64,000 nt of DNA from Candidatus Ozemobacteraceae bacterium (GCA_035388825.1 DAOOQQ010000019.1:225-64224); one strand, 5' to 3'. Shown: positions 11,205 through 57,651, counted from the stretch's first letter. Numbers and translations are program-made. The notes: generated from the letters alone by a model not told the origin.

Positions 11205-11287
11205 ACCCACGCGGCTGCACGACCCCGAGTGCGCCGGATCGCGGATTCCCGCAACCCGGCGCGTTCGTGCGTCCGCGCGGAAGCGCG

Positions 11288-27125: not shown

Positions 27126-28739
27126 TTAGAACGATTTGGGGATGTCGTTGCGGAGCCAGAACCAGACGCCGACGATGTTCACGAGACGATACTCCTTCTC
27201 GAGGAAGCCCTGGAGGCGGTCGCGCGTCGCGCGGTCGATGAAACCGGTTTTCAACAGATGGCTGCTCAGGACCGTCCGCTCCTGCTCCGGGTACCGTGAA
27301 AACGGAAAGTTGGCGATGCGGTTCTGCGAGGAGATGATGAGCGGCCTTCGCGAAATCAGTTGTTCGGTGAAGCTGCCGAGTGGTTTCTGGAGATCCCCGT
27401 GCAGGACCGGAAACTCGAGGAAGTTCCAGAACCAGGCATGATCGAAGCCCGTGGCGTTCTTGCACAGGATCGGGTGATCCGGATAGATGAGGCTGACCGG
27501 CCCGCGCTCGGCAAGCGACTGGAGAATGTCGATCTGGACCAGCTTCTCGTAGAACGGCGCCCAGGCCGCATACCGGATGTAATACTGGGACGGCAGCAGG
27601 AGGACGACGCAAGTGACGGCCAGAAAAACGAACTTTCCCTTCCGGACGAGCTCCCGCGCCGCCTCTTCCCCCGAGGGGGCCAGCGCCGTTGCCAGAAGAA
27701 GGGTGGACAGCTGGAGGTGATACAGGAATTTGTGCGGGCTGAGGAGCATGGGAACGACGCTTCCGATGCTGGCTGCCGCGAGGATGCCGCGGCGTCTCCG
27801 TTCGTCCGGGTCCGTCCCCGGCCATCTCCACCAGATGACGATCGTCGAAAATATTAAACTTACTGGAATATATCCTCCCGGCGGCTGGTAGGACTGGAAC
27901 TTGCGGTTGAACGTGAACGTTCCGTAGAGACACGCTTCCACGAGATCGTACCTGACCAGCCAGAGTGCCAGAGGGAGAAGGCCTGCTGCGACTCCTGCGG
28001 ATAGTGCGACGAGACGCCGGAAGGCGGAAGCGATGCCTGGAAAAGGCCGGCAGAAGGCATCGGCAAGGGCGGCACAGCCGAGCAGAAAGCCGACTTTCGG
28101 TGTCAGGGAAAGCGCAATTCCGAGAAACAGTCCCGCCGAAAACCGTATCCCGAGAGAGTCTGGACTGGCCGAGAGCAGCAGGATCAGTCCGGTGAGAACG
28201 AAGGGCGCCGCGACCAGATCGGGCCGGATGTAGTTCCACTGGAACGGGATCAGCATGGCTGCCCAGAAAAACAGAAAAACCGCCCGGGAGGGAGCCTGCC
28301 CGCCGTGGAGCCGGCTGCTCAGCTTCCAGGCGAGAACCCCGGAAACGAGAGCGATCGTGAGACTGGCCAGCCGTGCCGTTTCGAGAAGGCTGGAGCCGGC
28401 ATCGAAGAGGCGCGTGACGGGCGCGAGAAGGAACCAGAGGGTCGGAAGATGGTGCTGCCAGAAGTCTCGAAACGGAAGAAGGCCCTGGGAAACCTGCCAG
28501 GCGCAGTTCAGATGCTCGACCTCGTCGTGATCAAGATGCATGAACTGCCAGGCGAACAGCCCGGCGAGAACACTGCCAAGGCCCAGAACCCCTTCGAGCC
28601 GGCGATGACGAGGCCCGTCCGAAGCGAAAACGAACGGGAAAACGACGCGGGCAAGGAAGACGACGAGAAGGATCGGGAGCAACTTTTCGACGACTCCCGA
28701 GAAAAAAAACGATCGAAGATAGAATTCGAGTGGGTTCAT
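27126..28739 (-). CDS. Polytopic membrane protein, GT-C-fold glycosyltransferase-like (ArnT/PMT/DUF2142-like)
   Basis: 537 aa with >=10 predicted TM helices and an acidic motif in the first loop (HLDHDEVEH); topology resembles lipid-linked sugar transferases; family assignment not certain. Confidence 0.45.
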   Translation of the reverse strand: MNPLEFYLRSFFFSGVVEKLLPILLVVFLARVVFPFVFASDGPRHRRLEGVLGLGSVLAGLFAWQFMHLDHDEVEHLNCAWQVSQGLLPFRDFWQHHLPTLWFLLAPVTRLFDAGSSLLETARLASLTIALVSGVLAWKLSSRLHGGQAPSRAVFLFFWAAMLIPFQWNYIRPDLVAAPFVLTGLILLLSASPDSLGIRFSAGLFLGIALSLTPKVGFLLGCAALADAFCRPFPGIASAFRRLVALSAGVAAGLLPLALWLVRYDLVEACLYGTFTFNRKFQSYQPPGGYIPVSLIFSTIVIWWRWPGTDPDERRRRGILAAASIGSVVPMLLSPHKFLYHLQLSTLLLATALAPSGEEAARELVRKGKFVFLAVTCVVLLLPSQYYIRYAAWAPFYEKLVQIDILQSLAERGPVSLIYPDHPILCKNATGFDHAWFWNFLEFPVLHGDLQKPLGSFTEQLISRRPLIISSQNRIANFPFSRYPEQERTVLSSHLLKTGFIDRATRDRLQGFLEKEYRLVNIVGVWFWLRNDIPKSF

Positions 28740-29545
28740 CCGGATGAACCCGGAACTTCATTCATCACCCCGCGGCGGTATCCTTCCTGAGCGATCTCGA
28801 CAAGGGTGAAGCCGAGGGCTTCGAACCGGGGGAGAAGCCCGGGAAGAACCGCTTCGAGGCGGGCGACTTCTGGGGCAGGGACTTCGAGCCGGGCGTAGCT
28901 GCCGTGATGGCGCACCCGTGCATCCGAGAAACCGGCTTCCCGCAGGATCGTTTCGCCTTCCTCGATCTGGCGGAGCATCGGTTCCGTCACCGGCGTGCAG
29001 AAGGGAATGCGGGTTGCCAGGCAGGGGCCGGGGGGACGGATGAGATCCGTCGCGTTCCAGGCCGCCAACGCGTTCCGGATCTCCTGCTTGCCGAAGCCGG
29101 CGATCTCGAGGGGACTGACGACGCCCAGCTCGGCGAGGGCGCGGCGGCCGGGCCGGTGGTCTCCCCGGTCGTCGACGTTCGATCCGTCGGCGAGAAGCCA
29201 GCCTTCGGGCTTGAGGCCGAGGAGGGTGCCGAACACGTGTTTCTTGCACAGATAGCAACGATCGGGCGGATGCTTCGAAAATGCCTCGAGATGCAGAACC
29301 TCGAGCGGGACCTCGACGAGATCGAGACCGTGTTTCATCGCTGCCGCCCGCGCCGATTCGACTTCGTGGCGCGGCATAACTTCCGAGACGATGAGAAAGG
29401 CCCGGGTGTTGCCACCGAGTATGCGTTTCGCCGCGATGGCCAGGAAGGCGCTGTCCATGCCTCCCGAGTAGGCGACAGCCACGCCGGGCTGGCGCGCGAG
29501 CCAGGTGTTCAGGGCGTTCAGGGCATTGCTGGTGCCGGTATCCAT
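28736..29545 (-). CDS. PP-loop ATP pyrophosphatase, LarE/TIGR00268-like sulfur transferase
   Basis: SGGMDS PP-loop after the ATG at 29545; conserved Cys (CYLCKK); ~269 aa; the upstream ORF-track extension to 29623 is not needed. Confidence 0.55.
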   Translation of the reverse strand: MDTGTSNALNALNTWLARQPGVAVAYSGGMDSAFLAIAAKRILGGNTRAFLIVSEVMPRHEVESARAAAMKHGLDLVEVPLEVLHLEAFSKHPPDRCYLCKKHVFGTLLGLKPEGWLLADGSNVDDRGDHRPGRRALAELGVVSPLEIAGFGKQEIRNALAAWNATDLIRPPGPCLATRIPFCTPVTEPMLRQIEEGETILREAGFSDARVRHHGSYARLEVPAPEVARLEAVLPGLLPRFEALGFTLVEIAQEGYRRGVMNEVPGSSG

Positions 29546-29650
29546 GGTGGCGGCAGTATATCCCAATCTGCCCTTTCCCGCAGCCCCGACCGCATCTTCT
29601 GGATACGAAAGCCGCTTCACCACAAAACAGCCAAGACAAGAAAGAGATAC

Positions 29651-37655: not shown

Positions 37656-38647
37656 ACCACCGGACGATTCTTCTCCTGCTTGCGGGATTCGCCGCCGTGG
37701 TCGTCCTCGCCAGCCCCTTCATCGGGGGCGTGCCCGTCTCGTTCGATGCCCTGCTGCGCCCCTACGGGGATGATCCGTCCGCCATCCTCCTCTGGAAGCT
37801 GCGCCTGCCGCGGATCCTGGCGGCGTTCTTCGCCGGGGCGGCCTTGTCCGTCGCGGGCGGCGCGTTCCAGGCGCTGTTTCGCAACCCGCTCGCGACCCCC
37901 TTCACGCTGGGGGTTTCCGGGGCGGCATCGCTCGGAGCGGCTCTGTATCTGCGCTGGGGAAGCGAATCCGGGTTGTCCGGCCCGGGCGGCATCCTCGCCT
38001 CGTTCGCCGGCGCCGCCGTTTGCGTAGGGGCCGTCTATGCCCTTGCCTGGGGCCGGGGCGGGGTTTCGAACGCGCGTCTGCTGCTGGCGGGGGTCGCGAT
38101 CAGCTTCTGCTGCTCGAGCCTGATCATGTTCTCGCACTACGCTTCGACCGCCACCGACGCGTTCCGCATGATGCGCCACCTGATGGGAAGCCTCTCGGCA
38201 AGCGGCTGGGAAACGGTCGCCGTCCTTCTGCCCGTCACCCTGGTCGGCGGGCTGGTGTTGTGGGCGCTTGCCTGGGAACTCGATCTGCTGGCCGTCGGGG
38301 AGGATATCGCCCAGAGCCGCGGCGTCGCCGTCGAGAGAATACGGCACCTGATCTTTCTCGTCACCTGCGCGCTGGAAGCCTTCGTCGTGGCTCTGTGCGG
38401 CCCGATCGGCTTCGTGGGGTTGATGATCCCCCACTGCTGTCGCCTCTGGTTCGGAGGCGGCCACCGCGTTCTCCTCCCGGCGGCGTTTCTTCTGGGCGGC
38501 GCGTTCCTTGCCGCATGCGACACCGTCTCCCGCACCGTCGTCGCCCCCTCCGAAATGCCGGTCGGCGTCCTCACCTCCCTGATCGGCGGCGTCTTCTTCC
38601 TCTGGCTCCTCTTCGGCGCCACCGGCTCCGACACCCCCCTCGATTAG
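37652..38647 (+). CDS. FecCD-family ABC permease (BtuC-like)
   Basis: 331 aa; ~9-10 TM helices; FecCD motifs (LRLPRILAAFFAGAALSVAGGAFQALFRNPLATPFTLGVSGAASLG). Confidence 0.8.
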   Translation: MNHRTILLLLAGFAAVVVLASPFIGGVPVSFDALLRPYGDDPSAILLWKLRLPRILAAFFAGAALSVAGGAFQALFRNPLATPFTLGVSGAASLGAALYLRWGSESGLSGPGGILASFAGAAVCVGAVYALAWGRGGVSNARLLLAGVAISFCCSSLIMFSHYASTATDAFRMMRHLMGSLSASGWETVAVLLPVTLVGGLVLWALAWELDLLAVGEDIAQSRGVAVERIRHLIFLVTCALEAFVVALCGPIGFVGLMIPHCCRLWFGGGHRVLLPAAFLLGGAFLAACDTVSRTVVAPSEMPVGVLTSLIGGVFFLWLLFGATGSDTPLD

Positions 38648-38919
38648 CAGGGGGCATCGGGATTCCCGGAGGGATCTGTCGCCTCAGATCGTGAAGGGAA
38701 ACCCGCATGCCCATGAAGAGATGCGGGAAGGAACTGTTGAAAATTGAGGAGGGGGATATTATCTTTTCCCCGAGATGAGCCGATCCATCGGCTCGCAAGA
38801 AGGTTGTACGAGAGAGGTTGATGGCAGTTTTCCCTTCGATCGAGAGCAAAGAGCTCGTTCCCGATACGGCCGTGCCGTGCCTTGTCGCGCGCGGTTTGGC
38901 GATGCTGGAGGTTGATTCC

Positions 38920-41900
38920 ATGTCCACCCCCCTGCGTGTTCGTTTTCGCTTCCCCTGGCCGGCGTGCGTGCTGTTCGGGCTGTTGTGCCTCTGTCTCGTC
39001 GCCCCCGCCGCAGCCGATATACCGGCCCTCGAAACCGAGCGGGCGAAGGCGACCAAAGAGCTCGAAGCCGTCATCGGCACCATCAACCTGTCCGAAACGG
39101 CGGTCAGATCGGCGGGTGAGCTGATGAGCGGCCTCGAAACCGCCCTGGGAAAATACGTGTCGGCCCGGGACGCCCAGGCCGGCGTTGTCGCCGGCATCCG
39201 CGGCAAGCTTCGCGAGATCGATATCCAGCTGGCAAAGCTCCGCTCCCCCAACGATCTGGCCACGGCCTGGGGGGAATACAAGAACAACCGAACCCAGGAA
39301 AATTTCATCAAGCTGTATATGGTGGTGCGCGGCGTGAAACCGGACAACGCGACTCTGGAAAGCTATGTCCAGCAGGAATCGATCCTCCAGCTGGAGATCC
39401 GCAACAAAGTCATCGTTCCGGTTCTCCAGGTGCTGGTCAAGCTTGGCGGTCTCGTCAAGCAGATCAACGAGCTCGCCTTCAACGGGGTCGGCATCTGCCA
39501 TCCCCGCGACGCGGACGGGGCCCTCGAGGCCGTCGACGAACTTCTCGGAACGATGCAGAAGCATTTTTCGAAGCTCGAGACGAAGATGGGCATGAAGGAC
39601 GACCAGCTGCTCGTCGCCGGGGTGGCGGTCGAGCTTTCCAAGAACTTCCAGGACTTCTTCGATCCGAAGGAACTCATCCCCGACAAGCTCAAGGAGTGGT
39701 CGGACGCCTTCGAGGAGAGCAGCTACTCGAACTGGATTCCCGGCAAGGCCGCCTCCAAACTCCAGGCCGAGGCGGAGAAGATGGCCGAGGAGTCCTATGA
39801 GAAATTCAACGAGGATACCTACGGAACGAAGGATCGCGCGCGGGATTACGAGAAATTCTCCCGGATGCGCGAAGAGTTCGCAACGGCTGCCGATGAATCC
39901 GAGGCTGTTCTGAAAGAGTTCCAGAAGCCTGTCGACGAGTTTGCGGAAAAGGTCGCCGAGAGCCGGGAAAAATACAAGCGCATTCTCGGCGCGTATGAAG
40001 GCCTGCTCGAGCGCAAGATGGAGCTCGAACGCCGGATTCCCGACCTCGCCGCCCGGATCGATGATGAGAAGTGGCGCGAACTCTCGAAGCCGATTCCCGG
40101 CGAGAAACTTGCCGAAGAGGCTCCTGTTTTCGCTTTTCTCAATCCCGACCGCTCGGCCGGCTTCCTTGCCGCCGACGACCTGACGGAGATGGTGCTGGGC
40201 TACCCCCGGCAGCAGCGGTTCGCTCTCACGACCCGGGTGGCGCAGATCGTTCGGTCGAAAGCGAAAACCACGGTCTCCACGGGATCCGGCAGTCGCGAAA
40301 CGATCATCTCGCTCATCTCCCGTGGCGATTCGGGTGATGTGTACAAGTATCCCGGCGTCAAAATGCGTGACGAGCAGGGGCGGGTCGAGATCGACACGGC
40401 GGCCATGAGACTGGTTGGAAAGGCTCCCGGAACGGCGAAACTCGTGTTCGAGGTTCCCGGCTGGGGCGATATCACGACGGATCAGGCCGGCAACCACGTG
40501 CTCCAGACCCGCACCTACACGTCTCGCCGCGAAATTCCGGTCGCCAGGCTCACCGGAATCGAGGTTCGGAACGCTCTCGGCCCTGTCGGCCGGGTGGATC
40601 TCGTCTCGACAGCCGAGTCCCGCGGCGGCATGTTTGGGATGAAGGTCGAGGCGCTCGTCGAGCACGGCGCCGGAACGTCCCGGCAGCCTGTCGAGATGTC
40701 CCGCCTCGCCTTCACCCTGACGGGCGACTCCTGCGCCATCGTCAGGAAGTCCTCGGCGACCGAATTCGCCATCGAGGCCACCGACAGGCCCGGCGTCTGC
40801 ACCGTCGAGATCGGGGTTGCCGGCTCGGCCGGCTCGGCCCGGAAGGTGGCGAAAATCCGTGTCACGAACAGTGTTCTTCGGGCTTCCCGAAGCCTCGCTG
40901 ACGGTGAAAAAGTTGCCGCGGGCGTGAGTCGGAAGGCCGAAGAGCTGCCCATCGGTGCCTCTGGCAAGATCACGATTCTGATGGACGGGCCCGCTCCGGC
41001 TGAGGACTATATCGCCGAGTTGGTCTGTTCGCGCGGCAGCGAGGATCTCGAGCCTGGCCGGGGCGGCATCTCGGGAACCGCCCGCGCGGGTTTCGACTCT
41101 TCCGGCACGCTTTCCCAGGCGCTGCTTTCCTTCTCCCTCGGCAAGGAATGCCTGAAGATCGACGAGGCGCAGAAGAAGGGAACCTGGTTCAGCCGCGAGC
41201 CGATCACGGTGTCGGCCATCGTCCGGCGCCGCTCGACCAATGCGGTCGTCAGCCATTTCGGCTTCGGTGAGATCATCCCGGTCGCGACCGTCAAACGCCT
41301 GCGCGTCGTGATGCGCGGGAGCGGCGGCGATGGGGCCGTGGTCGATGCGATGCCCCTGTTCCGCCCCGCCGACCGGCAGCACAACCAGTGGCCGTTTGCG
41401 ATCCGCATCGAGCTCGAATCGGGCGACCGGATCACCGTTCCCCTCGACGCGGTCGAGCAGGGCCGGCCCGGGAGCCTGCTCTTCGGCATCGACGGGAAGA
41501 GCGGAAGTATTCTCTTCAATATCGGTGCCATGCAGCGGGTCGGCTGGGAAACCCTGACCTACCGGCTTTCCCCAAGCCGCGCGGCGCGGATGCACGTGAA
41601 CCTCGCGGGGGATTACGAAGACGGTTCGATCCTCTTTTCCGTGAACCGGCTCGAGCTCTGGAAGCACGAAAACGGCGTCCGGATGACCGTTCTCGGCCCC
41701 CAGAAAGACGCGATGGACGGGTATGCGGTCCGGTGGAAGGCCGGCTCCGGCATGACCACGACCCCCTTCCGGAAGGACCAGGGGGAATGGGTCTGCGACG
41801 GCCCAGAGAACACGCCGGTGTTCGAGGCCGTGCTTCTCAGTCCGCGCGGTGCCGAGTGCGGCGTCGTCCGGGGAGCCGACGGCAAGGCCATCGCGTCCTG

Positions 41901-44106
41901 CGAGCCGGACCACCGGCCGACCATGGCGATCGAGACTCCGACACCCCTCAAGGCCGGTGCGATCGCCAGCGTCCGCGTCACGTGCAACGATCTGCCTTCC
42001 GACGGCCCGCTGTCGATGGGATCGGCCGAGTATTACACGCTCTGGAAGACCACCGGCCCGTTCGGCAAGGTCAGAACGGCCGAAGGCCCGGTGTATCCCC
42101 TGGGCCCCACGGGCTTCCTCTCGATCGGGCATGTCGAGTATCTGCGCGGTGTGCCCGAAGGCGGCGCCAGGATTCCCGTCGAGGTCGAGTTGTACCGCCG
42201 CACTGACTGGCAGAGCTATCAGCCGAAAGGACGGCTCGTCGCTTCGGCGAGAGGAACGCTCGAGGCGCTCTACAATCCCTCTCTGCCTCCCTTCACGGGC
42301 CAGATCCGCATCGTCCAGGGAAGTGACGGCGGCCGGACGGTTGCGACGCAATGGGTGGAAGGCGCCCCCGAGGTGAGCCTCGAGCGCATGGTCGCCATCG
42401 ACGGCAACAACCCCTTCAATGTCCAGAACCCGATCGTGAACGTGACCAGAAACGGCCAGACGCTCGTCGCGACCGATGCCGTTCCGATCACCTCGCTTCC
42501 CGAGCCCCCCGTGCCCGGGGAACCGGTCGTTCCGGCTCCCCCGGCGCCGCCCGAGCCGCCGGCCCCCGTTCCGACGCTCACGACGGCGGCCCGCGACAAG
42601 TCTGATGGCGACAAGCTGCTTCCGTCGACCGGCGGCACGATCGTGGATACTGTTAGCTATACAAATCTGACGGCCGGTCGCTCCTACACGCTCAAGGGCG
42701 TCCTGATGAACCGCGCGACGGGCCAGTCGGCCGGGATCACCGCCGAGAAAACGTTCACCGCCGCTGCCGCGGCTGGGATCGTCACCCAGGAGTTCGTCGT
42801 CGGCGCCGGCGAGGCCGATCGGACACTCGTGGTGTTCGAAACCCTCCATGCCGACGGCGCCGTGGTGGCGCGGCACGAGGACCTGCTCGACGCCGCCCAG
42901 GCCGTGGCGGTCGGTGCCCCGCCGCCTCCGCCCGAGATGACGACGGCTGCCCGCGACAAGGCCGACGGCGACAAAGCCCTCCCGTCCGCCGGCGGCACGA
43001 TCGTGGATACCGTAAACTATAAAAACCTGACCCCGGGCCGCTCCTACACGTTGAAGGGCGCGCTGGTGAACAAGGCGACGGGCCAGGCGACCGGGATCAC
43101 CGCCGAAAAGACCTTCACGGCGCAGGCCGCCGATGGAAGCGTGACGCAGGAGTTCACGGTCACGATCCAGCAGGCGGGCCGCACCCTGGTCGTGTACGAA
43201 CGACTCTCCGATGGAGCCACGCTCGTGGTGAAGCATGAAGACCTGAACGACGCCGCACAGGCAGTCTCGATCGGAGCCCTGGTTCCGAGCCTGACGACGT
43301 CGGCGAAGGACAAGGCGGACGGGGACCGGACGCTTCCGTCAGCCGGCGGCACCATCACCGACACCGTCGCGTATACGGATCTCGTTCCCGGAAAAACCTA
43401 CACCCTGAAGGGCGAGGTGATGGACAAGGCGACCGGCCTTGCCGTCGGCATCACGACCCAGAAACCCTTCACGCCCTCCTCCTCCGCCGGCACGGTGACG
43501 CAGGAGTTCACGGTCACCGCACAGCAGGCCGGAAAAACGCTGGTTGTCTACGAAACCGTGCTCGACGGCGGTGCGGTGGTCGTGAAACACACCGATCTCA
43601 CCGATGCCGCCCAAACCGTTGTCGTCGAAGAAGCCCAACAGGGCATCACCGGGCTGACCTCGACCGTCGCCTTCGCGAACGTGAGTCCGGCGAACCCGAC
43701 GATCCACATGGCCTGTATCCTGCTCGACCCGAACACCAGTCAGGGAAGTCTCAGCGCCGGTGACGGCCAGATGTTCAGTGCCAACCGCGTCTTCGACATC
43801 CATGTGACGCCGACCTACAACATCGGAGACGGGGACCCGTGGATCCATTTCGAGCGCGCCCAGGCGAACTCCGGCAGCCCGAACTGGAGGCTGTCGGCCG
43901 CGACCGGTGCAACAAATACGTTATTTTATAATACTGGACAAAATATCACTGTATTCAACGTGAACACCCGGGTGACCCTGTTCATCGAGCAGGCCGTCGC
44001 CGGCGGATCGAAAATCAGGCTCGAATTGACGGTGACGCGTAATGGCAACGGCACGGCGGCAGGCGATTACCAGCTGGTCGTCCATACGGCCGAGTATGTG
44101 AACTGA
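38920..44106 (+). CDS. Giant secreted surface/adhesin-like protein (1728 aa): N-terminal helical domain, Ig-like beta domains, Pro-rich linker and three tandem Thr-Gln ester-bond stalk domains
   Basis: ATG 38920 gives the signal peptide MSTPLRVRFRFPWPACVLFGLLCLCLVAPAAA; the first ~450 aa are charged and coiled-coil-like; central beta-rich repeats; PEPPVPGEPVVPAPPAPPEPPAPVP linker; 3 x ~120-aa repeats each ending HEDLLDAAQ / HEDLNDAAQ / HTDLTDAAQ (the HxDxxDxxQ ester-bond signature) and containing VVFE/VVYE; no LPXTG. Confidence 0.8.
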   Translation: MSTPLRVRFRFPWPACVLFGLLCLCLVAPAAADIPALETERAKATKELEAVIGTINLSETAVRSAGELMSGLETALGKYVSARDAQAGVVAGIRGKLREIDIQLAKLRSPNDLATAWGEYKNNRTQENFIKLYMVVRGVKPDNATLESYVQQESILQLEIRNKVIVPVLQVLVKLGGLVKQINELAFNGVGICHPRDADGALEAVDELLGTMQKHFSKLETKMGMKDDQLLVAGVAVELSKNFQDFFDPKELIPDKLKEWSDAFEESSYSNWIPGKAASKLQAEAEKMAEESYEKFNEDTYGTKDRARDYEKFSRMREEFATAADESEAVLKEFQKPVDEFAEKVAESREKYKRILGAYEGLLERKMELERRIPDLAARIDDEKWRELSKPIPGEKLAEEAPVFAFLNPDRSAGFLAADDLTEMVLGYPRQQRFALTTRVAQIVRSKAKTTVSTGSGSRETIISLISRGDSGDVYKYPGVKMRDEQGRVEIDTAAMRLVGKAPGTAKLVFEVPGWGDITTDQAGNHVLQTRTYTSRREIPVARLTGIEVRNALGPVGRVDLVSTAESRGGMFGMKVEALVEHGAGTSRQPVEMSRLAFTLTGDSCAIVRKSSATEFAIEATDRPGVCTVEIGVAGSAGSARKVAKIRVTNSVLRASRSLADGEKVAAGVSRKAEELPIGASGKITILMDGPAPAEDYIAELVCSRGSEDLEPGRGGISGTARAGFDSSGTLSQALLSFSLGKECLKIDEAQKKGTWFSREPITVSAIVRRRSTNAVVSHFGFGEIIPVATVKRLRVVMRGSGGDGAVVDAMPLFRPADRQHNQWPFAIRIELESGDRITVPLDAVEQGRPGSLLFGIDGKSGSILFNIGAMQRVGWETLTYRLSPSRAARMHVNLAGDYEDGSILFSVNRLELWKHENGVRMTVLGPQKDAMDGYAVRWKAGSGMTTTPFRKDQGEWVCDGPENTPVFEAVLLSPRGAECGVVRGADGKAIASCEPDHRPTMAIETPTPLKAGAIASVRVTCNDLPSDGPLSMGSAEYYTLWKTTGPFGKVRTAEGPVYPLGPTGFLSIGHVEYLRGVPEGGARIPVEVELYRRTDWQSYQPKGRLVASARGTLEALYNPSLPPFTGQIRIVQGSDGGRTVATQWVEGAPEVSLERMVAIDGNNPFNVQNPIVNVTRNGQTLVATDAVPITSLPEPPVPGEPVVPAPPAPPEPPAPVPTLTTAARDKSDGDKLLPSTGGTIVDTVSYTNLTAGRSYTLKGVLMNRATGQSAGITAEKTFTAAAAAGIVTQEFVVGAGEADRTLVVFETLHADGAVVARHEDLLDAAQAVAVGAPPPPPEMTTAARDKADGDKALPSAGGTIVDTVNYKNLTPGRSYTLKGALVNKATGQATGITAEKTFTAQAADGSVTQEFTVTIQQAGRTLVVYERLSDGATLVVKHEDLNDAAQAVSIGALVPSLTTSAKDKADGDRTLPSAGGTITDTVAYTDLVPGKTYTLKGEVMDKATGLAVGITTQKPFTPSSSAGTVTQEFTVTAQQAGKTLVVYETVLDGGAVVVKHTDLTDAAQTVVVEEAQQGITGLTSTVAFANVSPANPTIHMACILLDPNTSQGSLSAGDGQMFSANRVFDIHVTPTYNIGDGDPWIHFERAQANSGSPNWRLSAATGATNTLFYNTGQNITVFNVNTRVTLFIEQAVAGGSKIRLELTVTRNGNGTAAGDYQLVVHTAEYVN
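42574..43632 (+). repeat. Three tandem ~360-bp coding repeats (TQ ester-bond / VaFE-type domains) inside the giant protein gene
   Basis: Repeat starts at 42574, 42934 and 43288; protein repeats TTAARDK(S/A)DGDK(L/A)LPS(T/A)GGTIVDTV.Y.NLT.GRSYTLKG... are ~65-75% identical to each other. Confidence 0.8.
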
Positions 44107-44123
44107 GAGAAAGGAGAACGACC

Positions 44124-44666
44124 ATGAATCGCATCATTCCGACCACCGTGCTGGCTCTCCTTCTCGCTTCAACGGCAGCGATCCTTTCCGCCGCCGAGTT
44201 CCGCTCGATCAATACGATCTCGACGCCGCAGGCCGGCTCCGGCCCCGCCCTGGCCGCTTCGGCCGACCCCGGTCTCGAGGTGGCCCGCAAGAGCCTCGAA
44301 AAGCGCACGGTCGATCTCGCCCGCGCCGGTCTCACCCGCCTCATCGAGGCCTGGCAGAGGGGCGACAAGCTTGAAGCCCTGCTCTCGGACTCGTTCAATG
44401 ACCGCGACCGGTTTCTCGACATCCTGCGCCGGGTCAGCCCGGGGGATGCGAAACTGCGGCTGCTTGCGATCGATGCCGTCCGGATCGTGTCCCGCTCGTT
44501 CGACCCGGCCGGGCCTGAGGGCAAGGGCTGGGCCCTGACCAGCCGCGTCTCGATCCGCGCCCGCACCCAGATCGAATACACCCACCCGAAGGGCGGCTAC
44601 CAGAAACTCGACGGGATCAACGAGTTCGTTCTTCGCGTGGTCCAGCCGCTTCAGACGCAACGCTGA
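44124..44666 (+). CDS. Small secreted protein of unknown function (co-oriented directly downstream of the giant protein)
   Basis: Signal peptide MNRIIPTTVLALLLASTAAILSAAEF; 180 aa; 17-nt gap after the giant gene stop. Confidence 0.5.
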   Translation: MNRIIPTTVLALLLASTAAILSAAEFRSINTISTPQAGSGPALAASADPGLEVARKSLEKRTVDLARAGLTRLIEAWQRGDKLEALLSDSFNDRDRFLDILRRVSPGDAKLRLLAIDAVRIVSRSFDPAGPEGKGWALTSRVSIRARTQIEYTHPKGGYQKLDGINEFVLRVVQPLQTQR

Positions 44667-44690
44667 CGAATCGCAGGGAATGGTGACGAT

Positions 44691-46847
44691 ATGAAACGGA
44701 TACGAATCTTCGGCTGCTCGCTTCTTCTCTCCCTGTCGCTCTGCCTCTGTGCCGCGCCCGAAAGCCGCGCGGAACCCCCGGTCGATGGGGACGTCAATCT
44801 CGGCGGCGACCTGATGTTCCGCGGCGACCAGTATGACGTCGACGGGGACGCTGCGCGGGCTCCCTACCCCTACACCGGCATCCACCGCTACCTGGATTTC
44901 AACTTCGAGCTGTATCGCAAGGCGAGCGCGTTCGAAAACTGGAACCTGCGGTTCGGCGGTGTTCAGAATAATTCCAGCTATAGAAGCCGAGACTGGGGAA
45001 CCGAGCTTGAACGCTTCCGGTTCGTCTGGGAAAAGGGGGATCGCGGCACCCCCTTCCGCCTCGAAGCCGGCGAAATCTACGGCAACTTCACGAATCGCAC
45101 GCTCCAGCGCGCGCTCCACGGCTTGCTGCTCGATCTCCAGCCGGTCATGAAGGGCGACGTGAAACGCTCGATCCAACTGTTGTGGGGACTCGCCCGAGGC
45201 GAGTGGAAAGACCCGTTCGAGGATCGCGACCAGAGCATGGGCATCTCCCTTGTCGAGGAGCGGCGCGATGACTTGCGGTTCTCGCTGAACTGGGTGACGA
45301 ACCGGCGGGACCCGACCGCGACCCGCGCCGGCCTGCTGCAGCAGGTCTGGAGCGCGGCCTTCGAAAAGCCCCTCGATCGGGAGCGGCGGCACGTGCTCGA
45401 GTCGGAATACGCCTGGTTCTCGGGCGATCACGAGGGCGACGGCACGCCCGGAAGCGGCCTGGATCGGTATGACACCGGCCTGTTCATGCAGCTGCGGCAC
45501 CATTCGACTCCGTTCGGCTACACCTGGCGGTTCGAGGAATACGGAAAAGACTTCCGGCCCAACGGGGCGAACATCACCCAGAATCGCAAGGCTCTCGAAG
45601 GCTATCTTTCCTGGCAGCTCGAGAAGATCCGCACGCTCTCGGTGCGCCTCCAGCGGTTCCGCAACGCCTGGGAGAGCCCGAACCCCCTCGACTCGGATAT
45701 CGCCGGGGTGACCCTCAGCGGCCAGGTTTCGCCGAAGGACAAACTCTACGCCAGTCTCAACGCCTATGTCGACCGCTCCGACGATCGGCTCGACACGGTC
45801 GACTCGCGTTCGCGCAACCTCGATCTGAACCTGTCGCGGCCCCTCACCAACGACCTGAATGCCCGTCTCGGCTTCGGCTATCGGGACTTCGACAACCGGC
45901 TCGGCCCCGCCGGCGACAACCGGGCGCTCCAGGCCCTGCTCGGTCTCGACAAATCGATCGAATGGAACAACGCCCCGCTGACGATAGGGCTTAATTTTAT
46001 ACGCAATGCAATTGATTCTTCGGGCATCTTCTCGAATGACTGGAACACCGGGCTTTCGGTGTATCGCACGGCCGGCAACCAGGAGTTCGGACTGACCTGG
46101 AACACCCAGGCGCTCGATTATCGCCCGCAGCCGAACGCGGATGTCTACGCGAATGATTTCGGCTTCCGGTGGCAGCGTCGCAACGGGGATACCGTCGTGG
46201 GTGTCGAGATCGCCCGGAACCGGCGCGACGAAACCCGCGCCTGGCGGTACGGCTTCTATCTCGGCACCGAGTTCGACCGGGCCCTGATGCGTGCTCCGAA
46301 GAGAGAGGCCGCCGGTGAAAGCGTGCCCGGCGAGGTGACGGAGCAATTTGACCTTGCCGCCATCGTGCCCGGCACGGCGGTTGCCTCGTTCGTCGACGCG
46401 CTCGACCGGCGCGGCATGGCGATGACGAAGACCGGAAACCTCTACTCCGCTGATCACCCGGTGTTCGAGGACTTGTTCCAGCGGCAGACCCTGGCGGCGG
46501 AAGCCGACGATGCGGGGAGTCTCGTGCGTGCCGGCGTCGTGGTCCGGCTCGAAGAGTATGCGACATCCTCGGACATCATGGACGCCTATGACCGGATCCG
46601 GCGCCGCCTGCTCGACCGACTGGGCAATCCCGCGAACTCCTACGAACGGGGTGCCGTCGGCCCCGCCCTTGCCGACGAGATCCGTTCGGGGGCCTTCGTT
46701 CGCGTTCTCGACTGGAAGACGCCCCATGGCCTCCTCCGACTCGGTTTCCCGCGTCGCCTCGATGGTCGGATCCGCCTCGAGGTGCAGGTTGCCCGCGAAT
46801 TCCCCGGGGAGACCGAAGGCATGTGGGGCTTCGACAGTCTGAACTGA
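44691..46847 (+). CDS. Large secreted beta-rich protein, putative outer-membrane beta-barrel
   Basis: Signal peptide MKRIRIFGCSLLLSLSLCLCAAPESRA; 718 aa with many short alternating-polarity segments and Gly/aromatic-rich turns (FGYRDFDNRLG, GLNFIRNAIDSSG, FGLTWNTQALDYRP); C-terminus is not a canonical aromatic residue, so barrel assignment is tentative. Confidence 0.4.
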   Translation: MKRIRIFGCSLLLSLSLCLCAAPESRAEPPVDGDVNLGGDLMFRGDQYDVDGDAARAPYPYTGIHRYLDFNFELYRKASAFENWNLRFGGVQNNSSYRSRDWGTELERFRFVWEKGDRGTPFRLEAGEIYGNFTNRTLQRALHGLLLDLQPVMKGDVKRSIQLLWGLARGEWKDPFEDRDQSMGISLVEERRDDLRFSLNWVTNRRDPTATRAGLLQQVWSAAFEKPLDRERRHVLESEYAWFSGDHEGDGTPGSGLDRYDTGLFMQLRHHSTPFGYTWRFEEYGKDFRPNGANITQNRKALEGYLSWQLEKIRTLSVRLQRFRNAWESPNPLDSDIAGVTLSGQVSPKDKLYASLNAYVDRSDDRLDTVDSRSRNLDLNLSRPLTNDLNARLGFGYRDFDNRLGPAGDNRALQALLGLDKSIEWNNAPLTIGLNFIRNAIDSSGIFSNDWNTGLSVYRTAGNQEFGLTWNTQALDYRPQPNADVYANDFGFRWQRRNGDTVVGVEIARNRRDETRAWRYGFYLGTEFDRALMRAPKREAAGESVPGEVTEQFDLAAIVPGTAVASFVDALDRRGMAMTKTGNLYSADHPVFEDLFQRQTLAAEADDAGSLVRAGVVVRLEEYATSSDIMDAYDRIRRRLLDRLGNPANSYERGAVGPALADEIRSGAFVRVLDWKTPHGLLRLGFPRRLDGRIRLEVQVAREFPGETEGMWGFDSLN

Positions 46848-46856
46848 CCTATCGCC

Positions 46857-46884
46857 GTGGGGGCGCATCGCGCTGCGCCCCCGC
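46857..46884 (+). terminator. GC hairpin after the beta-barrel-like gene
   Basis: gtgggggcgca-tcgcgc-tgcgcccccgc perfect stem; no U-tract. Confidence 0.3.
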
Positions 46885-46934
46885 AATTCGCAAGGCATGG
46901 CCGGAGCGTGATCCGCCCGGGCGGAAGGAAAGCA

Positions 46935-46990
46935 TTGACTTTTCATGTACGGGTTGATAGACTTGCCCCCTGTCTATCTCATGTACGGTT
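46935..46990 (+). promoter_or_regulatory. Putative secG promoter region with direct repeat and palindrome
   Basis: TTGACT (46935-40), 17 nt, TAGACT; a 13-nt direct repeat TCATGTACGG(G)TTG at 46943-56 and 46978-90 flanks the palindrome GATAGAC-N9-GTCTATC (46956-78); SD AAGGAG before ATG 47010. Confidence 0.3.
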
Positions 46991-54643: not shown

Positions 54644-55540
54644 ATGCGCATCAAAGAACGCGGATGGATCTGGGCGGAGCTGCTCGTTGTCCTTCTGCTG
54701 ACGATGGCCGGCGATGTACTGTTCGCGGGCCAGATATATATCGTTGGAAATAATATTGACCGGGAGGTCGCGCGGGATGCCGGCCTTGCGGGGAGCTACG
54801 TCTCGGAGTGCGATGAAATCCCTGCGGGGGCGAATGTCGTGGTGCTCGGCCGGGCGGATGCCGCGGGCGGGGTCGACGAAGCCGAGTATGAGTCGCTTGC
54901 CGGCGACGGCTGCCGCTCGATCCGGCTGGGGGCGAAAAACCGGCTCGACGTGAAACAGGCCGCCGCTTCCCTCAAGAAGATGATCGACGCGGGAGCGGAT
55001 CCGTTTGCTGACGTGAGCCGGACGATGGGGCTGATCGAGGCGTCGCGGGAGTACCCGCTGCTCAGCCAGGCGGAGCTGAACAAGCAGGGAAAAACCTCGC
55101 TCAATCCGCAATTCCAGCCGCAGAATCTGTTTCCCCGGGCTGCCACCCCGACCGTCGATCTGAGTCCGGAAGCTTCGTCCCTGGCTTCCAAGCTCGACCG
55201 GGACGGCCGGGTCGCCCTGTATATCAACTTCAGCCCGCAGAGTCCCGTCATCAATCCTCGCTCATTCCCGACTCTCCGCCAGGTTCTGGATCTCCTCAAG
55301 GCGCGGCCCGCCATGAAGCTCCTCATCGAGGGGCATACCGACAATTACCTGAGCAGCGAGTTCAATCAGACCCTGTCCGAGCAGCGTGCCTACAATGTTC
55401 GCCGCTGGCTTGCCGATCGCGGTGCCGTGGCCGGCAATCTCACGTCCGTCGGGTATGGGGAAACGCGCCCGATCGCCCCGAACTTCACATCGGCGGGCCG
55501 GGCCAGGAACCGCCGGGTCGAGATCGTGAAGGTTCGCTGA
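54644..55540 (+). CDS. OmpA/MotB-family protein (N-terminal TM or signal anchor, C-terminal peptidoglycan-binding domain)
   Basis: The C-terminus (LLIEGHTDNYLSSEFNQTLSEQRAYNVRRWL...GYGETRPIAPN...RRVEIV) is the OmpA-like domain; SD AAGGAGAG before ATG 54644. Confidence 0.75.
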   Translation: MRIKERGWIWAELLVVLLLTMAGDVLFAGQIYIVGNNIDREVARDAGLAGSYVSECDEIPAGANVVVLGRADAAGGVDEAEYESLAGDGCRSIRLGAKNRLDVKQAAASLKKMIDAGADPFADVSRTMGLIEASREYPLLSQAELNKQGKTSLNPQFQPQNLFPRAATPTVDLSPEASSLASKLDRDGRVALYINFSPQSPVINPRSFPTLRQVLDLLKARPAMKLLIEGHTDNYLSSEFNQTLSEQRAYNVRRWLADRGAVAGNLTSVGYGETRPIAPNFTSAGRARNRRVEIVKVR

Positions 55541-57651
55541 TGTCGATGGTTGCCCGCAAGCCGATGCCCTGCGCAGGTTCTCCCAAATCCGGAAGTGCGC
55601 TGGTCATCGTCGCGACGGGGCTGATCCTGGTATTCCTCGCGGGAAGCTGGTTTGCCCGGCACATGATCGCGATCCGGAACCAGACCCACCGGCAGGGCAG
55701 CCAGCAGCTCACCTGGAACTTCGTGCGGGGCCTCTCGATCCTCGCCGCCCACAAGATCCAGTATGACCTCTTGTCCGGCTCTCCTTCGGATGACCGCCTG
55801 AAAACGGCTCTTTCCCTCCCGCTGGACAAACTGCGCGACCTTTCCGCGATCGAGCTTGACCTCGCGGAACAGCCCGGCTCGCTCCGGGGACCGCTCGAAC
55901 GCCTCGTCTCGCCCGTCGCGGCCCAAGGCAGGATTTCTCATACCATCACCTATACGTTGAATCGGGACGATTTCGAATTCTGCGGGGCGACGGCCTTTCC
56001 CCGCGAAAAACGCGGCCTGATCCGGCTCGTGATCGAAACCGAGTTCAAGGGGGAGGCCGAGACTCATCTCTTCGCCATTCCCGTGCGCGTCGCAGCGACG
56101 GTGATTCCGGGGATCTCCAAATTCTCCCTTTTCCTCCAGGATGCGACTGACGGCGACGCGGGGGGCAAGAATTCAGGATTATTCAATATAATATCTACAG
56201 ATATAGATGGAAAGTTGCGGCCGGGCTCTCGTGGAAAGCCGATCGTGCTCGAGAACGGCGATCTGGCGCGAGGGGACATCAAGTGGGAGAACTTTTTCAA
56301 TAAGCCCGTGGGCCTTGTCTATCTCGGGGGAGGGGATGTCATTCTCAACCTGGCCCGGGGCGAGAGCCGGACAGGGGACTACGGGGAGGCGTTCCATTTC
56401 TACGAGGTCAACTACGAGGGATTCTGGGACGGGCTGTATGCGACGAAGATCGGCAACCATCCCACCCATGGGGCCTATGCCCTGATGAACTGGGACAAGG
56501 GGATCTGTGACGACTTCGCGACTCCGGAGGCGCGGGAGTGGTGGAGTTTCGTCATTTCCTCCCCTAATGCTGGTGACATGCGGCTCAATTCGGCGCTGAA
56601 GCTTTTCGGCACCGACAAGAAGCAGTCCCCCACCCTCGTGCTTGGCCGTGTGTTCCGGGGTCAGATCACGGCGCGGGCGTATAAAACCGCCGACGAGAGC
56701 CTGCCTTCCGCATTCTTCTACCATATCGAGGGGCTGGATATGTGGCGCCGCGCTCTCGACGACAATCCCTGCATGGCTGCGGATGACGGGATCAATACGA
56801 TCGCCCGCTTCGCCCGTGACGTCCTCGAACTGGAACCGGATGCGGCTTCTCTCGAGAAATATCAACAGAAATATGCCAGTGACTATTCCCACTACCCGTA
56901 CAACTCCTCGCTTGCCTTCTACGCGACCAACAACATGGTTGCCGATGCCCCCTCGAAATTCGGCGGCGAGCTGGGGAAGCGGATGGAGGTCGACCGGACG
57001 AACCCCCTGCTCGACACGCTCCCCGCGGAGCTGCGGCCAGTGTTCGGAAACACGTCGACGGTTCCCTCGCTTCTGGCCTGCCTGAAAGGCGGGGATACCG
57101 TCGAACGGCGGATGGCCTGGTCGATCGATCTCGCAGGGAAGGCCGGCGCATTTCCCGAGTGTCTCGTTTCCCGCGGGCTGGCCCGCATGGAAGGGGAAAC
57201 CCTGCATCTGAGCCTGAACGGGTGGATCAGGCTCGAGAGGGTGCCCGGCACCGGCCTTGTCTTCGACCGTCCCGTCGTCGTCGATGGCCCGGGTGGAATC
57301 CTTCTCGATCGCGGCTCCATCGTGATTCGCGCGCCGATCGACGGCCGGGGGAATGCGAGCCGTCCCCCGACGATCCTGACGCTCGCGACGTGTGACGGCG
57401 ACCTGACGGTCGAAACCGAGGGACGGGTCGATGCCGCGCTCGTCGCCCCCGGGCGGGTCTGCATCGGGAAGGGCGATCCCGGCCGGGTTTCCATCTGGGG
57501 CAGCGTCGCGGCCGGACGAATGGACCTGAAAACGGCGTCCGAAGGGGCCAGAATCCAGTACAACGCCGCCCTGGCCTGTCTGCCGCCCTATCTGGATGAA
57601 ACACCCGCGCTTTCCTACAGCGTCGATCCGAACCCGATCCTGGTCAAATGA
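55540..57651 (+). CDS. Large (703-aa) membrane-anchored protein of unknown function, in operon with pseudopilins
   Basis: N-terminal TM helix (SALVIVATGLILVFLAGSWF) without Glu+5; ATGA-type overlaps with both the upstream OmpA-like and downstream pseudopilin genes; possibly a GspK/PilX-class minor pilin or pilus tip component. Confidence 0.45.
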   Translation: MSMVARKPMPCAGSPKSGSALVIVATGLILVFLAGSWFARHMIAIRNQTHRQGSQQLTWNFVRGLSILAAHKIQYDLLSGSPSDDRLKTALSLPLDKLRDLSAIELDLAEQPGSLRGPLERLVSPVAAQGRISHTITYTLNRDDFEFCGATAFPREKRGLIRLVIETEFKGEAETHLFAIPVRVAATVIPGISKFSLFLQDATDGDAGGKNSGLFNIISTDIDGKLRPGSRGKPIVLENGDLARGDIKWENFFNKPVGLVYLGGGDVILNLARGESRTGDYGEAFHFYEVNYEGFWDGLYATKIGNHPTHGAYALMNWDKGICDDFATPEAREWWSFVISSPNAGDMRLNSALKLFGTDKKQSPTLVLGRVFRGQITARAYKTADESLPSAFFYHIEGLDMWRRALDDNPCMAADDGINTIARFARDVLELEPDAASLEKYQQKYASDYSHYPYNSSLAFYATNNMVADAPSKFGGELGKRMEVDRTNPLLDTLPAELRPVFGNTSTVPSLLACLKGGDTVERRMAWSIDLAGKAGAFPECLVSRGLARMEGETLHLSLNGWIRLERVPGTGLVFDRPVVVDGPGGILLDRGSIVIRAPIDGRGNASRPPTILTLATCDGDLTVETEGRVDAALVAPGRVCIGKGDPGRVSIWGSVAAGRMDLKTASEGARIQYNAALACLPPYLDETPALSYSVDPNPILVK

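Follow-up and report, generated by a model that had tools for sequence, protein, structure and literature searches.

Organization of the three-gene locus

The window, a 64,000-nt stretch of the genome of a Candidatus Ozemobacteraceae bacterium, contains three consecutive genes on the + strand that encode, in this order, a giant protein of 1728 amino acids (aa), a protein of 180 aa and a protein of 718 aa, with intergenic gaps of 17 and 24 nt (Table 1). The giant gene lies in an ORF spanning 38818–44106 (+) in the ORF scan, and its ATG at 38920 is preceded at 8–9 nt by GGAGG. Since GC3 reaches 0.81–0.83 in the three frames (0.81 in the giant gene), all of them were taken as coding, and the long antisense ORFs were dismissed as high-GC artifacts. 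The best reading is that the genes form one operon, because of the short gaps, the promoter-like site upstream and the hairpin downstream, which was missed by the terminator scan because it has no T-run. A prepilin peptidase gene is also present in the window.

Table 1. Features of the cassette, with positions counted from the first nucleotide of the window
Feature	Position	Strand	Basis or remark
Promoter-like site, TTGAAA-17-TATCTT	38737–38765	+	Consensus scan, pattern match only; 5' of giant gene
Giant secreted protein gene, 1728 aa	38920–44106	+	ORF, GC3, orthologues with PF18202
Signal peptide, residues 1–33 (...APAAA, then D), without lipobox	38920–39018	+	Read from sequence
Charged helical N-terminal region, residues 34–440	39019–40239	+	Composition; weak coiled-coil-type matches
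Variable beta-rich middle module, residues 441–1100	40240–42219	+	Homologous modules in 16 loci
Strand-GNNPF-xx-NP segment, residues 1140–1185	42337–42474 (GNNPF 42403–42417)	+	jackhmmer and HMM searches of loci
Pro-rich linker, residues 1186–1218	42475–42573	+	Sequence
T-Q ester-bond domain 1, residues 1219–1332	42574–42915	+	TTAARDK ... VVFE ... HEDLLDAAQ
T-Q ester-bond domain 2, residues 1333–1452	42916–43275	+	TTAARDK ... VVYE ... HEDLNDAAQ
T-Q ester-bond domain 3, residues 1453–1575	43276–43644	+	TTSAKDK ... VVYE ... HTDLTDAAQ
C-terminal beta-rich end domain, 153 aa	43645–44103	+	After stalk; in Ozemobacteraceae orthologues only
Small secreted protein gene, 180 aa: signal peptide, conserved FRxxxP[IV]xTP peptide, NTF2-like domain	44124–44666	+	
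Outer-membrane protein gene (predicted barrel), 718 aa	44691–46847	+	
Predicted beta-barrel, residues 35–531, ~26 strands	44793–46283	+	Structure model
C-terminal alpha/beta domain of barrel protein, residues 555–718, invariant PRRLDG motif	46353–46844	+	Alignments
GC-rich hairpin, likely operon end	46859–46882	+	Sequence; 12 nt past barrel stop codon

The N-terminus of the giant protein, MSTPLRVRFRFPWPACVLFGLLCLCLVAPAAA followed by D, resembles a type I signal peptide. Residues 34–440 are 26% D/E/K/R (E 11.8%, K 8.4%), and residues ~81–320 are the best-conserved part of the protein among Ozemobacteraceae orthologues (47–75% invariant columns); outside this lineage, the N-terminal region is common only to one Desulfobacterales homologue. 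The middle module has 10–38% invariant columns among Ozemobacteraceae, and its homologues come from Desulfobacterota, Minwuia and Kordiimonadales. Pro makes up 16% of region 1101–1212. Orthologues of the giant protein are 1623–1963 aa long and all contain PF18202; outside these repeats, no Pfam or PDB match was found, and hence no recognizable adhesive domain. The C-terminal domain, which varies among orthologues, likewise had no match in Pfam or PDB.

Most of this architecture had been read from the sequence in the original prediction, which described a secreted 1728-aa protein with a charged helical N-terminal region (backed here by composition and weak coiled-coil-type matches only), a Pro-rich linker and three ~120-aa tandem repeats with HxDxxDxxQ and VVFE/VVYE, now located at residues 1186–1575. 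The two co-oriented genes for secreted proteins that follow it directly, the OmpA-like protein encoded in the genome (54644–55540 in the window) and the lack of an LPXTG signal were likewise confirmed. With regard to the latter, the sortase signal (C-terminal LPXTG, hydrophobic stretch and charged tail) is absent from the giant protein, which ends in ...HTAEYVN and whose sole LPXTG-like string is LPSTG at residue 1234, within repeat 1; the corresponding string in the other two repeats is LPSAG. A sortase-anchored Gram-positive surface protein was rejected, as there is no C-terminal sorting signal or membrane anchor.

The tandem repeats and the Thr-Gln ester-bond family

At the DNA level the repeats have a 360-nt period with a 75% match. 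Each contains TT[AS]A[RK]DK (starting at residues 1221, 1341 and 1459), [IV][VT]DT, VV[FY]E (1304, 1424 and 1542) and H.DL.DAAQ (1319, 1439 and 1557). Their proposed identity as ester-bond domains was borne out by profile searches, in which Pfam TQ (PF18202) matched three stretches of the giant protein with 264.5 bits (cutoff 23.8; E = 2.1e-79) and NCBIfam VaFE_rpt (NF033903) scored 245.5 bits (cutoff 24; E = 9.4e-74). One repeat alone matches Cpe0147 (4mkm, E = 1.2e-9), and sequence searches found the repeats homologous to ester-bond domains of solved structure (4mkm, 8dj2 and 7ui8). These matches place all three in the T-Q ester-bond family, far beyond chance.

The catalytic residues of Cpe0147 are T450, D480, E547, H572, D577 and Q580 (PMC12679949). 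When aligned to 4mkm, all three repeats keep counterparts of the six, namely the first-strand Thr, the C-terminal Gln, the His/Asp pair within HxDxxDxxQ, and two acids that are buried, one being the Asp after the first strands and the other the Glu of VVFE; ester bonds probably form in them. Close orthologues have two to five copies of the domain, as expected for a surface stalk.

The partner proteins and distribution of the cassette

The 180-aa protein, which has no Cys, is predicted to adopt an NTF2-like fold, with the alpha+beta cone of that superfamily, and would be periplasmic. For the 718-aa protein, the model supports the outer-membrane barrel originally suggested, here predicted with ~26 strands: it has a signal peptide, a predicted even number of antiparallel amphipathic strands and an aromatic-ended terminal strand, ending at the near-invariant F528, and every predicted loop is of 14 residues or less. 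This model is of moderate confidence (pLDDT 65, 6 sequences), with low confidence for the C-terminal domain, which is presumably periplasmic. No Pfam or NCBIfam family matched the 718-aa protein at E ≤ 0.1, nor did any PDB sequence. When 44 members of the barrel family were compared with NCBIfam, no consistent family was found there, at most two of the 44 sharing one, at E ≥ 0.0014; one member had a lone AmiC match. As no family model matched, the assignments to type V (autotransporter, TpsB, intimin), usher, Slam/DUF560, LptD and TonB-dependent transporter were all rejected.

The barrel family comprises 465 cluster representatives. Across 80 species genomes, none of a recognizably monoderm lineage, the small gene is nearly always directly 5' of the barrel gene (53 of 62 loci), with a large secreted protein encoded 5' of it; in L040/P0058, the small protein is fused onto the N-terminus of the barrel. 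All Ozemobacteraceae relatives whose flanking sequence is long enough keep the trio, and dozens of species of other diderm phyla keep it minus the ester domains. Several genomes contain two cassettes, with one large protein apiece. Most large proteins with readable N-termini have a Sec signal peptide without a lipobox. We link the barrel/small pair to a large cargo because an ORF of at least 600 aa ends at the small gene in 38 of the 44 loci with enough flank, and at least 46 loci share a cargo motif.

Apart from this motif, strand-GNNP[FY]..[DN]P (residues ~1150–1175 of the giant), no part of the large protein is conserved from phylum to phylum; jackhmmer and HMM searches of the loci detected it in 31 and then in at least 46 (iE < 0.01). 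It is a candidate docking, recognition or processing element. The stalks, in turn, differ among lineages: Big_1 (×6) and Big_9/cadherin (×9) occur in the cargo of other lineages, Big_1 repeats being used in a Burkholderiales version of the cassette, while the ester domains and the 153-aa end domain were found in Ozemobacteraceae only. The latter two lie C-terminal of the motif, whereas Inquilinus has an Ig-like stalk N-terminal of a weak motif. As judged from these loci, the core is a generic cassette, to which the ester-bond stalk is a lineage-specific addition.

Proposed role and relation to known surface systems

The barrel family and the OmpA-family gene, together with the Ozemobacteraceae lineage, which we take to be diderm, argue for a diderm envelope; host lineage and partner genes point to an outer membrane. 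Slightly better than even (a probability of about 0.55) is our estimate that the trio is a dedicated cassette for outer-membrane export and/or anchoring plus a giant cargo with an ester-bond stalk. Sec would take all three products to the periplasm, and the 718-aa protein would enter the outer membrane as a wide, short-loop barrel with its C-terminal domain facing the periplasm. The NTF2-like protein would join it 1:1 at the periplasmic side, as plug or adaptor, and the pair would bring the giant to the cell surface or keep it there. The contact on the giant is probably the strand-GNNPF..NP segment, but the N-terminal helical region could be the true one, because among Ozemobacteraceae it is better conserved than the motif. 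In this lineage the segment is followed by the Pro-rich linker, the two to five Ig-like domains and the end domain, and each Ig-like domain would lock itself by an autocatalytic Thr-Gln ester bond, with Thr as nucleophile, a His-Asp base/acid pair and the two buried acids. The outcome would be a covalently stiffened stalk of ~10–25 nm. Because this stalk lies C-terminal of the docking-type segment, what it would keep at a distance from the docking point is the 153-aa domain and not the N-terminus, an arrangement like that of a fibrillar adhesin. This topology is tentative, given that the tail past the motif ranges from 50 to 777 aa across the large proteins and that the Ig-like stalk of Inquilinus lies on the other side of its weak motif. 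Such adhesins, in the definition attributed to Monzon and Bateman, reportedly combine stalk repeats, an adhesive domain and an anchor; the giant has the stalk but no recognizable adhesive domain, its anchor would be new, and a binding function is presumed.

Alternatively, the barrel and NTF2-like protein may be a one-cargo secretion pore that releases the giant to the medium or matrix, with a function akin to that of two-partner or type 11 secretion and with GNNPF as secretion signal or self-cleavage site. This would fit the single barrel per large protein, the multiple cassettes in a genome and the position of the motif in many Gammaproteobacteria, where it is as close to the C-terminus as a C-terminal secretion signal would be; the motif also contains Asn-Asn-Pro and [DN]-Pro, whose bonds would be chemically labile. 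However, 410–777 aa come after the motif in Ozemobacteraceae and Robiginitomaculum, an internal position that would be strange for a terminal signal. Moreover, cross-linking of a stalk is most sensible with one end fixed, and release seems unlikely.

We find it distinctly improbable that the giant remains periplasmic, with the NTF2-like protein and the periplasmic domain of the barrel as its tethering points and the stalk as a strut or tether from the outer membrane to the wall or inner membrane. Although its crossing of the outer membrane is itself presumed, the NTF2-like protein and the C-terminal domain of the barrel would both be periplasmic, and some envelope tethers do have a long charged helical region like that at its N-terminus, variation from two to five stalk domains among close relatives is hard to square with a fixed periplasmic width. 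Furthermore, the middle module and the end domain show the hypervariability of exposed surfaces, the Big_1 and cadherin-like repeats of other cassettes are typical of surface proteins, and a wide short-loop barrel would be purposeless.

Very little weight is given to the idea that the repeats are Ig-like spacers of the TQ family that ceased forming ester bonds. They do lack a segment of ~13 residues that Cpe0147 has between the VVFE strand and HxD, and the catalytic case, like their folding, was judged at the level of sequence; nevertheless, although overall identity is 48%, the six catalytic positions are intact in the three repeats and in the inspected orthologues (P0007, P0010, P0011 and the L001 protein). 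That the gene order has no functional link, the barrel serving as porin or uptake channel alongside an accessory protein and the giant being exported otherwise, e.g., by type II secretion, is scarcely credible, as the order large-small-barrel recurs in dozens of loci over several phyla amid differing surroundings, the cargo motif co-occurs with the small/barrel pair, and the barrel gave neither a TonB plug domain nor a TBDT match in Pfam. None of the three outcomes that the original prediction had set against itself beforehand came about, two of them having been checked in full and the first at the level of sequence.

Thr-Gln ester-bond domains have been described from sortase-anchored Gram-positive adhesins (PMC12679949, PMC8382745). 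The giant shares with the Cpe0147/VaFE adhesins (PF18202, NF033903) the domain family, tandem stalk arrangement and full catalytic set, but it lacks their sortase signal and a recognizable head, its repeats are shorter (~120 aa), and its stalk is near the C-terminus, after an unrelated 1200-aa module. Inverse autotransporters (intimin/invasin, type Ve) also combine a barrel, a presumed docking or passing segment, an Ig-like stalk and a C-terminal tip domain; their barrel, however, is fused and has 12 strands, whereas the one predicted here is separate, has ~26 and comes without IAT_beta or LysM matches, and neither the NTF2-like protein nor the ~1100-aa N-terminal module of the giant has a counterpart. 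TpsA/TpsB and type 11 (Slam/DUF560) systems are alike in having a dedicated barrel gene beside a single Sec-dependent cargo, several paralogous pairs per genome and a short conserved recognition element on the cargo. They differ in that no POTRA, ShlB, TPS-domain or DUF560 match was found here, the barrel is much larger, there is an NTF2-like third component, and the cargo motif is another and can be internal.

Ushers (FimD, PapC) handle polymerizing pilins, whereas the cargo here is one giant polypeptide; no usher model of Pfam matched, the barrel has no inserted plug domain, and a chaperone gene is absent. Unlike LptD-LptE (no OstA or LptD match) and MtrB-MtrA(-MtrC), the cassette has an NTF2-like partner and, as far as its sequences indicate, a function that has nothing to do with LPS or electron transfer; an MtrAB-type porin-cytochrome complex was ruled out, with no CXXCH haem motif in the giant and no Cys in the small protein. 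Isopeptide-bonded (CLIPPER/DUF11) fibrillar adhesins are known in Gram-negative bacteria, and these too are diderm proteins with covalently cross-linked Ig-like stalk domains; they differ in domain family, in their bond (Lys-Asn isopeptide instead of Thr-Gln ester) and in using known anchors (T9SS tails, T1SS and others) (PMC12617251).

Returning to the export or anchoring cassette, we tentatively suggest, at somewhat less than even odds, that the NTF2-like protein, the ~26-strand barrel and a GNNP[FY]..[DN]P giant constitute an unrecognized, phylogenetically wide outer-membrane secretion/anchoring system, a new type onto which Ozemobacteraceae grafted a Gram-positive-type ester-bond stalk. 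It would be unrelated in sequence to types V, VIII, IX, XI or the ushers, and the motif would be a recognition site or an intra-barrel self-processing site. The three-gene cassette is so far uncharacterized and unannotated, with no Pfam, NCBIfam or PDB relative. Its presence in cultured bacteria (Inquilinus sp. CAU 1745 and Kordiimonadales IMCC3096) makes genetics possible.

If the Ozemobacteraceae stalk sits on the outer membrane, Thr-Gln ester chemistry extends to diderm surfaces, which would parallel the recent isopeptide-bond case (PMC12617251). The more important point is the partner-gene cassette. In surveys, most fibrillar-adhesin-like proteins lacked a known anchor (PMC8286594), and the cassette is a concrete, testable candidate for one of the missing surface routes; if true, the new system would explain how a share of the many anchor-less fibrillar proteins of diderms reach, and stay on, the cell surface.

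The ester-bond repeats and their probable operon

The three tandem repeats of about 120 aa, originally predicted to be Thr-Gln ester-bond domains, occupy residues 1219–1575 of the giant protein, preceded by a Pro-rich linker, and every one of them contains TT[AS]A[RK]DK, [IV][VT]DT, VV[FY]E, and H.DL.DAAQ. Three matches each were obtained with the Pfam TQ model (PF18202, E = 2.1e-79) and the NCBIfam model VaFE_rpt (E = 9.4e-74). A single repeat used as query retrieved the solved ester-bond domains of Cpe0147, 4mkm (E = 1.2e-9) and 4ni6, as well as other "adhesin" ester domains (8dj2, 7ui8, and 9blo), and in the alignment with Cpe0147 its Asp, Glu, and HEDxNDxAQ fall on the equivalent residues. 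The catalytic set of Cpe0147, established by experiment, consists of T450, Q580, H572, and D577 together with two buried residues, D480 and E547 (PMC12679949), and was found intact in all three repeats. Judged by sequence, the repeats belong to the TQ/VaFE family, as had been predicted. Orthologues with 48–90% identity keep the architecture with two, three, four, or five repeats; a varying repeat number is the usual behavior of stalks. No sortase signal was found in the giant protein, in line with the lack of an LPXTG motif noticed originally, and it was rejected as a sortase substrate.

The three genes lie in the same orientation, separated by gaps of 17 and then 24 nt, and their GC3 of 0.81–0.83 indicates that the three frames are coding. 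No terminator-like sites were seen on the + strand between them. Two long antisense ORFs over the giant and barrel genes were identified by codon-position GC as high-GC artefacts and not genes. The surroundings are core chromosomal genes: an ABC/FecCD transporter on the 5′ side, SecG and enolase on the 3′ side, and, more distant in the window, HprK, YvcK, WhiA, SecA, RF2, and CysS. Given this context and a PHROGs search without a match, a phage or defence element was rejected. The HprK-YvcK-WhiA arrangement, typical of Firmicutes and Actinobacteria, is here found in a lineage with outer-membrane-type genes. An OmpA-family gene is present, as the original prediction had stated, and with the ORF that overlaps its stop codon it may form another envelope-associated pair. 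The nearest public relatives are MAGs named Candidatus Ozemobacteraceae (94% for the barrel protein); literature and taxonomy look-ups on the envelope type of this family returned no information.

Features of the window (positions in nucleotides)
Feature	Position	Strand	Remarks
Probable three-gene operon	38920–46847	+
Promoter-like site	38737–38765
Giant protein gene	38920–44106	+	1728 aa; ATG 38920, stop 44106
GNNP[FY]xx[DN]P motif	42403–42432		giant residues 1162–1171
Small protein gene	44124–44666	+	180 aa
Barrel gene	44691–46847	+	718 aa
GC-rich hairpin	46859–46882		directly 3′ of barrel gene
Antisense ORF	38644–43236	−	1530 aa
Antisense ORF	44169–46946	−	925 aa
OmpA-family gene	54644–55540		PF00691
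OmpA-family gene and next ORF	54644–57651		ORF of 703 aa, stop/start overlap, no Pfam match
HprK, YvcK (CofD-like), WhiA	1485–4581
ORF	11138–12985	+	615 aa; coding-like GC3, no Pfam match
ORF	27126–28739	−	537 aa; coding-like GC3, no Pfam match
ORF	28736–29623	−	295 aa; coding-like GC3, no Pfam match

The predicted barrel, the small protein, and their distribution

Neither the 718-aa protein, which carries a signal peptide, nor the small NTF2-like protein had a relative in Pfam, NCBIfam, or PDB sequence searches, and NCBIfam returned no consistent family for 44 members of the barrel family. An AlphaFold2 model (6 sequences, pLDDT 65) fits the earlier suggestion of a beta-barrel, as it predicts 26 consecutive antiparallel strands at residues 35–531, with every connecting loop of 14 residues or less, followed by a poorly modeled alpha/beta domain at residues 555–718. 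The comparison of this protein with known barrels gave values of 18 for SlpA, 17.2 for FhuA, 17.1 for FimD (4.4 Å over 359 residues), 16.5 for PapC, 15.4 for MtrB, and 13.6 for LptD. The final strand, with alternating hydrophobic residues and a terminal Phe conserved in 41 of the 44 members, resembles a BAM beta-signal and is consistent with a putative outer-membrane location. With a barrel so wide and loops so short, the modeled lumen would have to be filled by something. A natural fusion occurs in one Victivallales locus (L040:559–3357) and in protein P0058: the small protein continues in frame into the N-terminal end of the barrel protein, and the barrel part has no signal peptide of its own. 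This "Rosetta-stone" fusion argues for a 1:1 complex on the periplasmic side.

A profile search for the barrel family detected 465 representatives at 50% clustering (293 with E < 1e-30), nearly all of 700–750 aa. When one genome per species was scanned with a 14-sequence subset of the 44-sequence alignment, 80 loci were found, distributed among Ozemobacteraceae, Desulfobacterota (Desulfobacterales, Syntrophorhabdaceae, and Smithellaceae), Nitrospirota, Lentisphaerota (Victivallales), Alpha-, Beta-, Gamma-, and Zetaproteobacteria, and Magnetococcales. No locus came from a recognizably monoderm lineage; a few of the 80 were labeled only "uncultured bacterium". A plasmid tblastn search with a gammaproteobacterial barrel gave no match. 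The gene order was conserved: the small gene was immediately 5′ of the barrel gene in 53 of the 62 distinct loci with upstream flank (one more had a frame-split barrel, and in five the small gene was elsewhere in the cluster), and an ORF of at least 600 aa ended at the small gene in 38 of the 44 loci whose flank reached 3 kb or more. Four MAGs contain two barrel-gene loci each; in the pairs L010 and L040, and L021 and L038, each locus has its own large protein.

Conserved and variable parts of the large proteins

When parts of the giant protein were used one by one as queries against the loci, they gave very different distributions. The helical N-terminal region (residues 34–440) was found only in Ozemobacteraceae and one Desulfobacterales MAG, the middle module (residues 441–1100) in 16 loci, and the TQ repeats with the 153-aa end domain only in Ozemobacteraceae, while the segment around residues 1140–1185 was detected in 31 loci, and in at least 46 with its HMM. 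In this segment a hydrophobic strand leads into GNNP[FY], and [DN]P comes four residues further. In most lineages it lies 50–270 aa from the C-terminus of the product of the gene adjoining the small gene; in Desulfobacterota, Minwuia, and Kordiimonadales it is encoded by a separate gene of 250–340 aa, and in Robiginitomaculum a weak variant, below threshold (iE 0.37–1.6), is located mid-protein. A limited literature search, which does not prove absence, returned no description of the motif or of the cassette formed by the large, small, and barrel genes.

At the Desulfobacterales locus, a 1046-aa protein without a TQ domain aligns to giant residues 16–1092, and the next gene encodes the motif. 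Together with the distribution of the pieces, this indicates that the Ozemobacteraceae line gained the ester stalk and the end domain, behind the conserved segment. A comparison of the end domain with the C-terminal part of the separate ~250–340-aa motif proteins of Desulfobacterota gave only the motif by BLAST (E = 4e-4) and, by hhalign, a probability of 10.7%, covering only the last strands. Other cassettes have stalks of different families, such as six Big_1 domains in a Burkholderiales MAG (L060:5253–9380) and nine Big_9/cadherin-like domains in Inquilinus sp. CAU 1745 (L062:4764–9359), so that the stalk module seems interchangeable. Where the N-terminus of the large protein could be read, it mostly carried a type I signal peptide without a lipobox, and a charged helical start was frequent. 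In four diverged orthologues from Ozemobacteraceae, invariant columns amounted to 47–75% at residues 81–320, 50% in the motif region, 10–38% in the middle module, and 15–38% in the end domain. In a 69%-related Ozemobacteraceae MAG, a 275-aa gene just 5′ of the giant gene (L001:2080–2907) resembles giant residues ~262–353 of the helical region (4.8e-20) and looks like a paralogous fragment.

Proposed role of the cassette

We propose, with a probability of about 0.55 for the overall picture, that the cassette is dedicated to a single giant protein, which it exports at the outer membrane and/or anchors there. The products would leave the cytoplasm by Sec, the barrel would be inserted in the outer membrane, and the NTF2-like protein would bind on its periplasmic side, acting as a plug or adaptor. 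A conserved contact would then pass the large protein to the surface or hold it there, the best candidate across phyla being the GNNPF segment and the second, within Ozemobacteraceae, the N-terminal helical region. In the presumed topology, three Ig-like domains locked by ester bonds would form, with the Pro-rich linker, a stiff, protease- and force-resistant stalk that presents the variable end domain, possibly for adhesion.

Secretion only, in which the cargo is released, is an unlikely alternative. In the invariant motif, Pro follows two successive Asn, and another Asn/Asp-Pro comes four residues on. SPATE autotransporters cleave themselves inside the barrel at an Asn-Asn site, and the bonds Asn-Pro and Asp-Pro are labile chemically. 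The motif could conceivably be self-processing, and the cargo might be cut at the Asn-Asn-Pro or [DN]-Pro of the motif. Less likely still is a strut or tether within the periplasm, since stalk length varies from two to five domains and the modules are hypervariable. That the repeats, with their complete catalytic set, no longer cross-link is improbable, and synteny of the three genes with no functional link, in loci of so many phyla, is the least credible reading.

The surface device we favor resembles known systems in its logic: inverse autotransporters, in which an Ig-like stalk and then a C-terminal tip follow the barrel; two-partner secretion and type 11 secretion, with a barrel encoded beside a single cargo; and LptDE and MtrAB, in which a small partner fills a barrel of 26 strands. 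The cassette belongs to none of type V secretion, ushers, Slam/T11SS, LptDE, TonB-dependent transporters, and Mtr, for which the family models all failed, and a porin-cytochrome conduit was rejected because the giant protein has no haem motifs. Conservatively, this is a variation on what is known, namely surface proteins with a TQ stalk and surface display by way of a barrel; that the cassette is a new type of outer-membrane secretion or anchoring system is put forward only tentatively. The observation that started this analysis was thus confirmed and its interpretation supported, with a refinement on where the novelty lies: it is mainly in the outer-membrane cassette, which is conserved and unannotated and which one lineage has elaborated with the ester-bond stalk.
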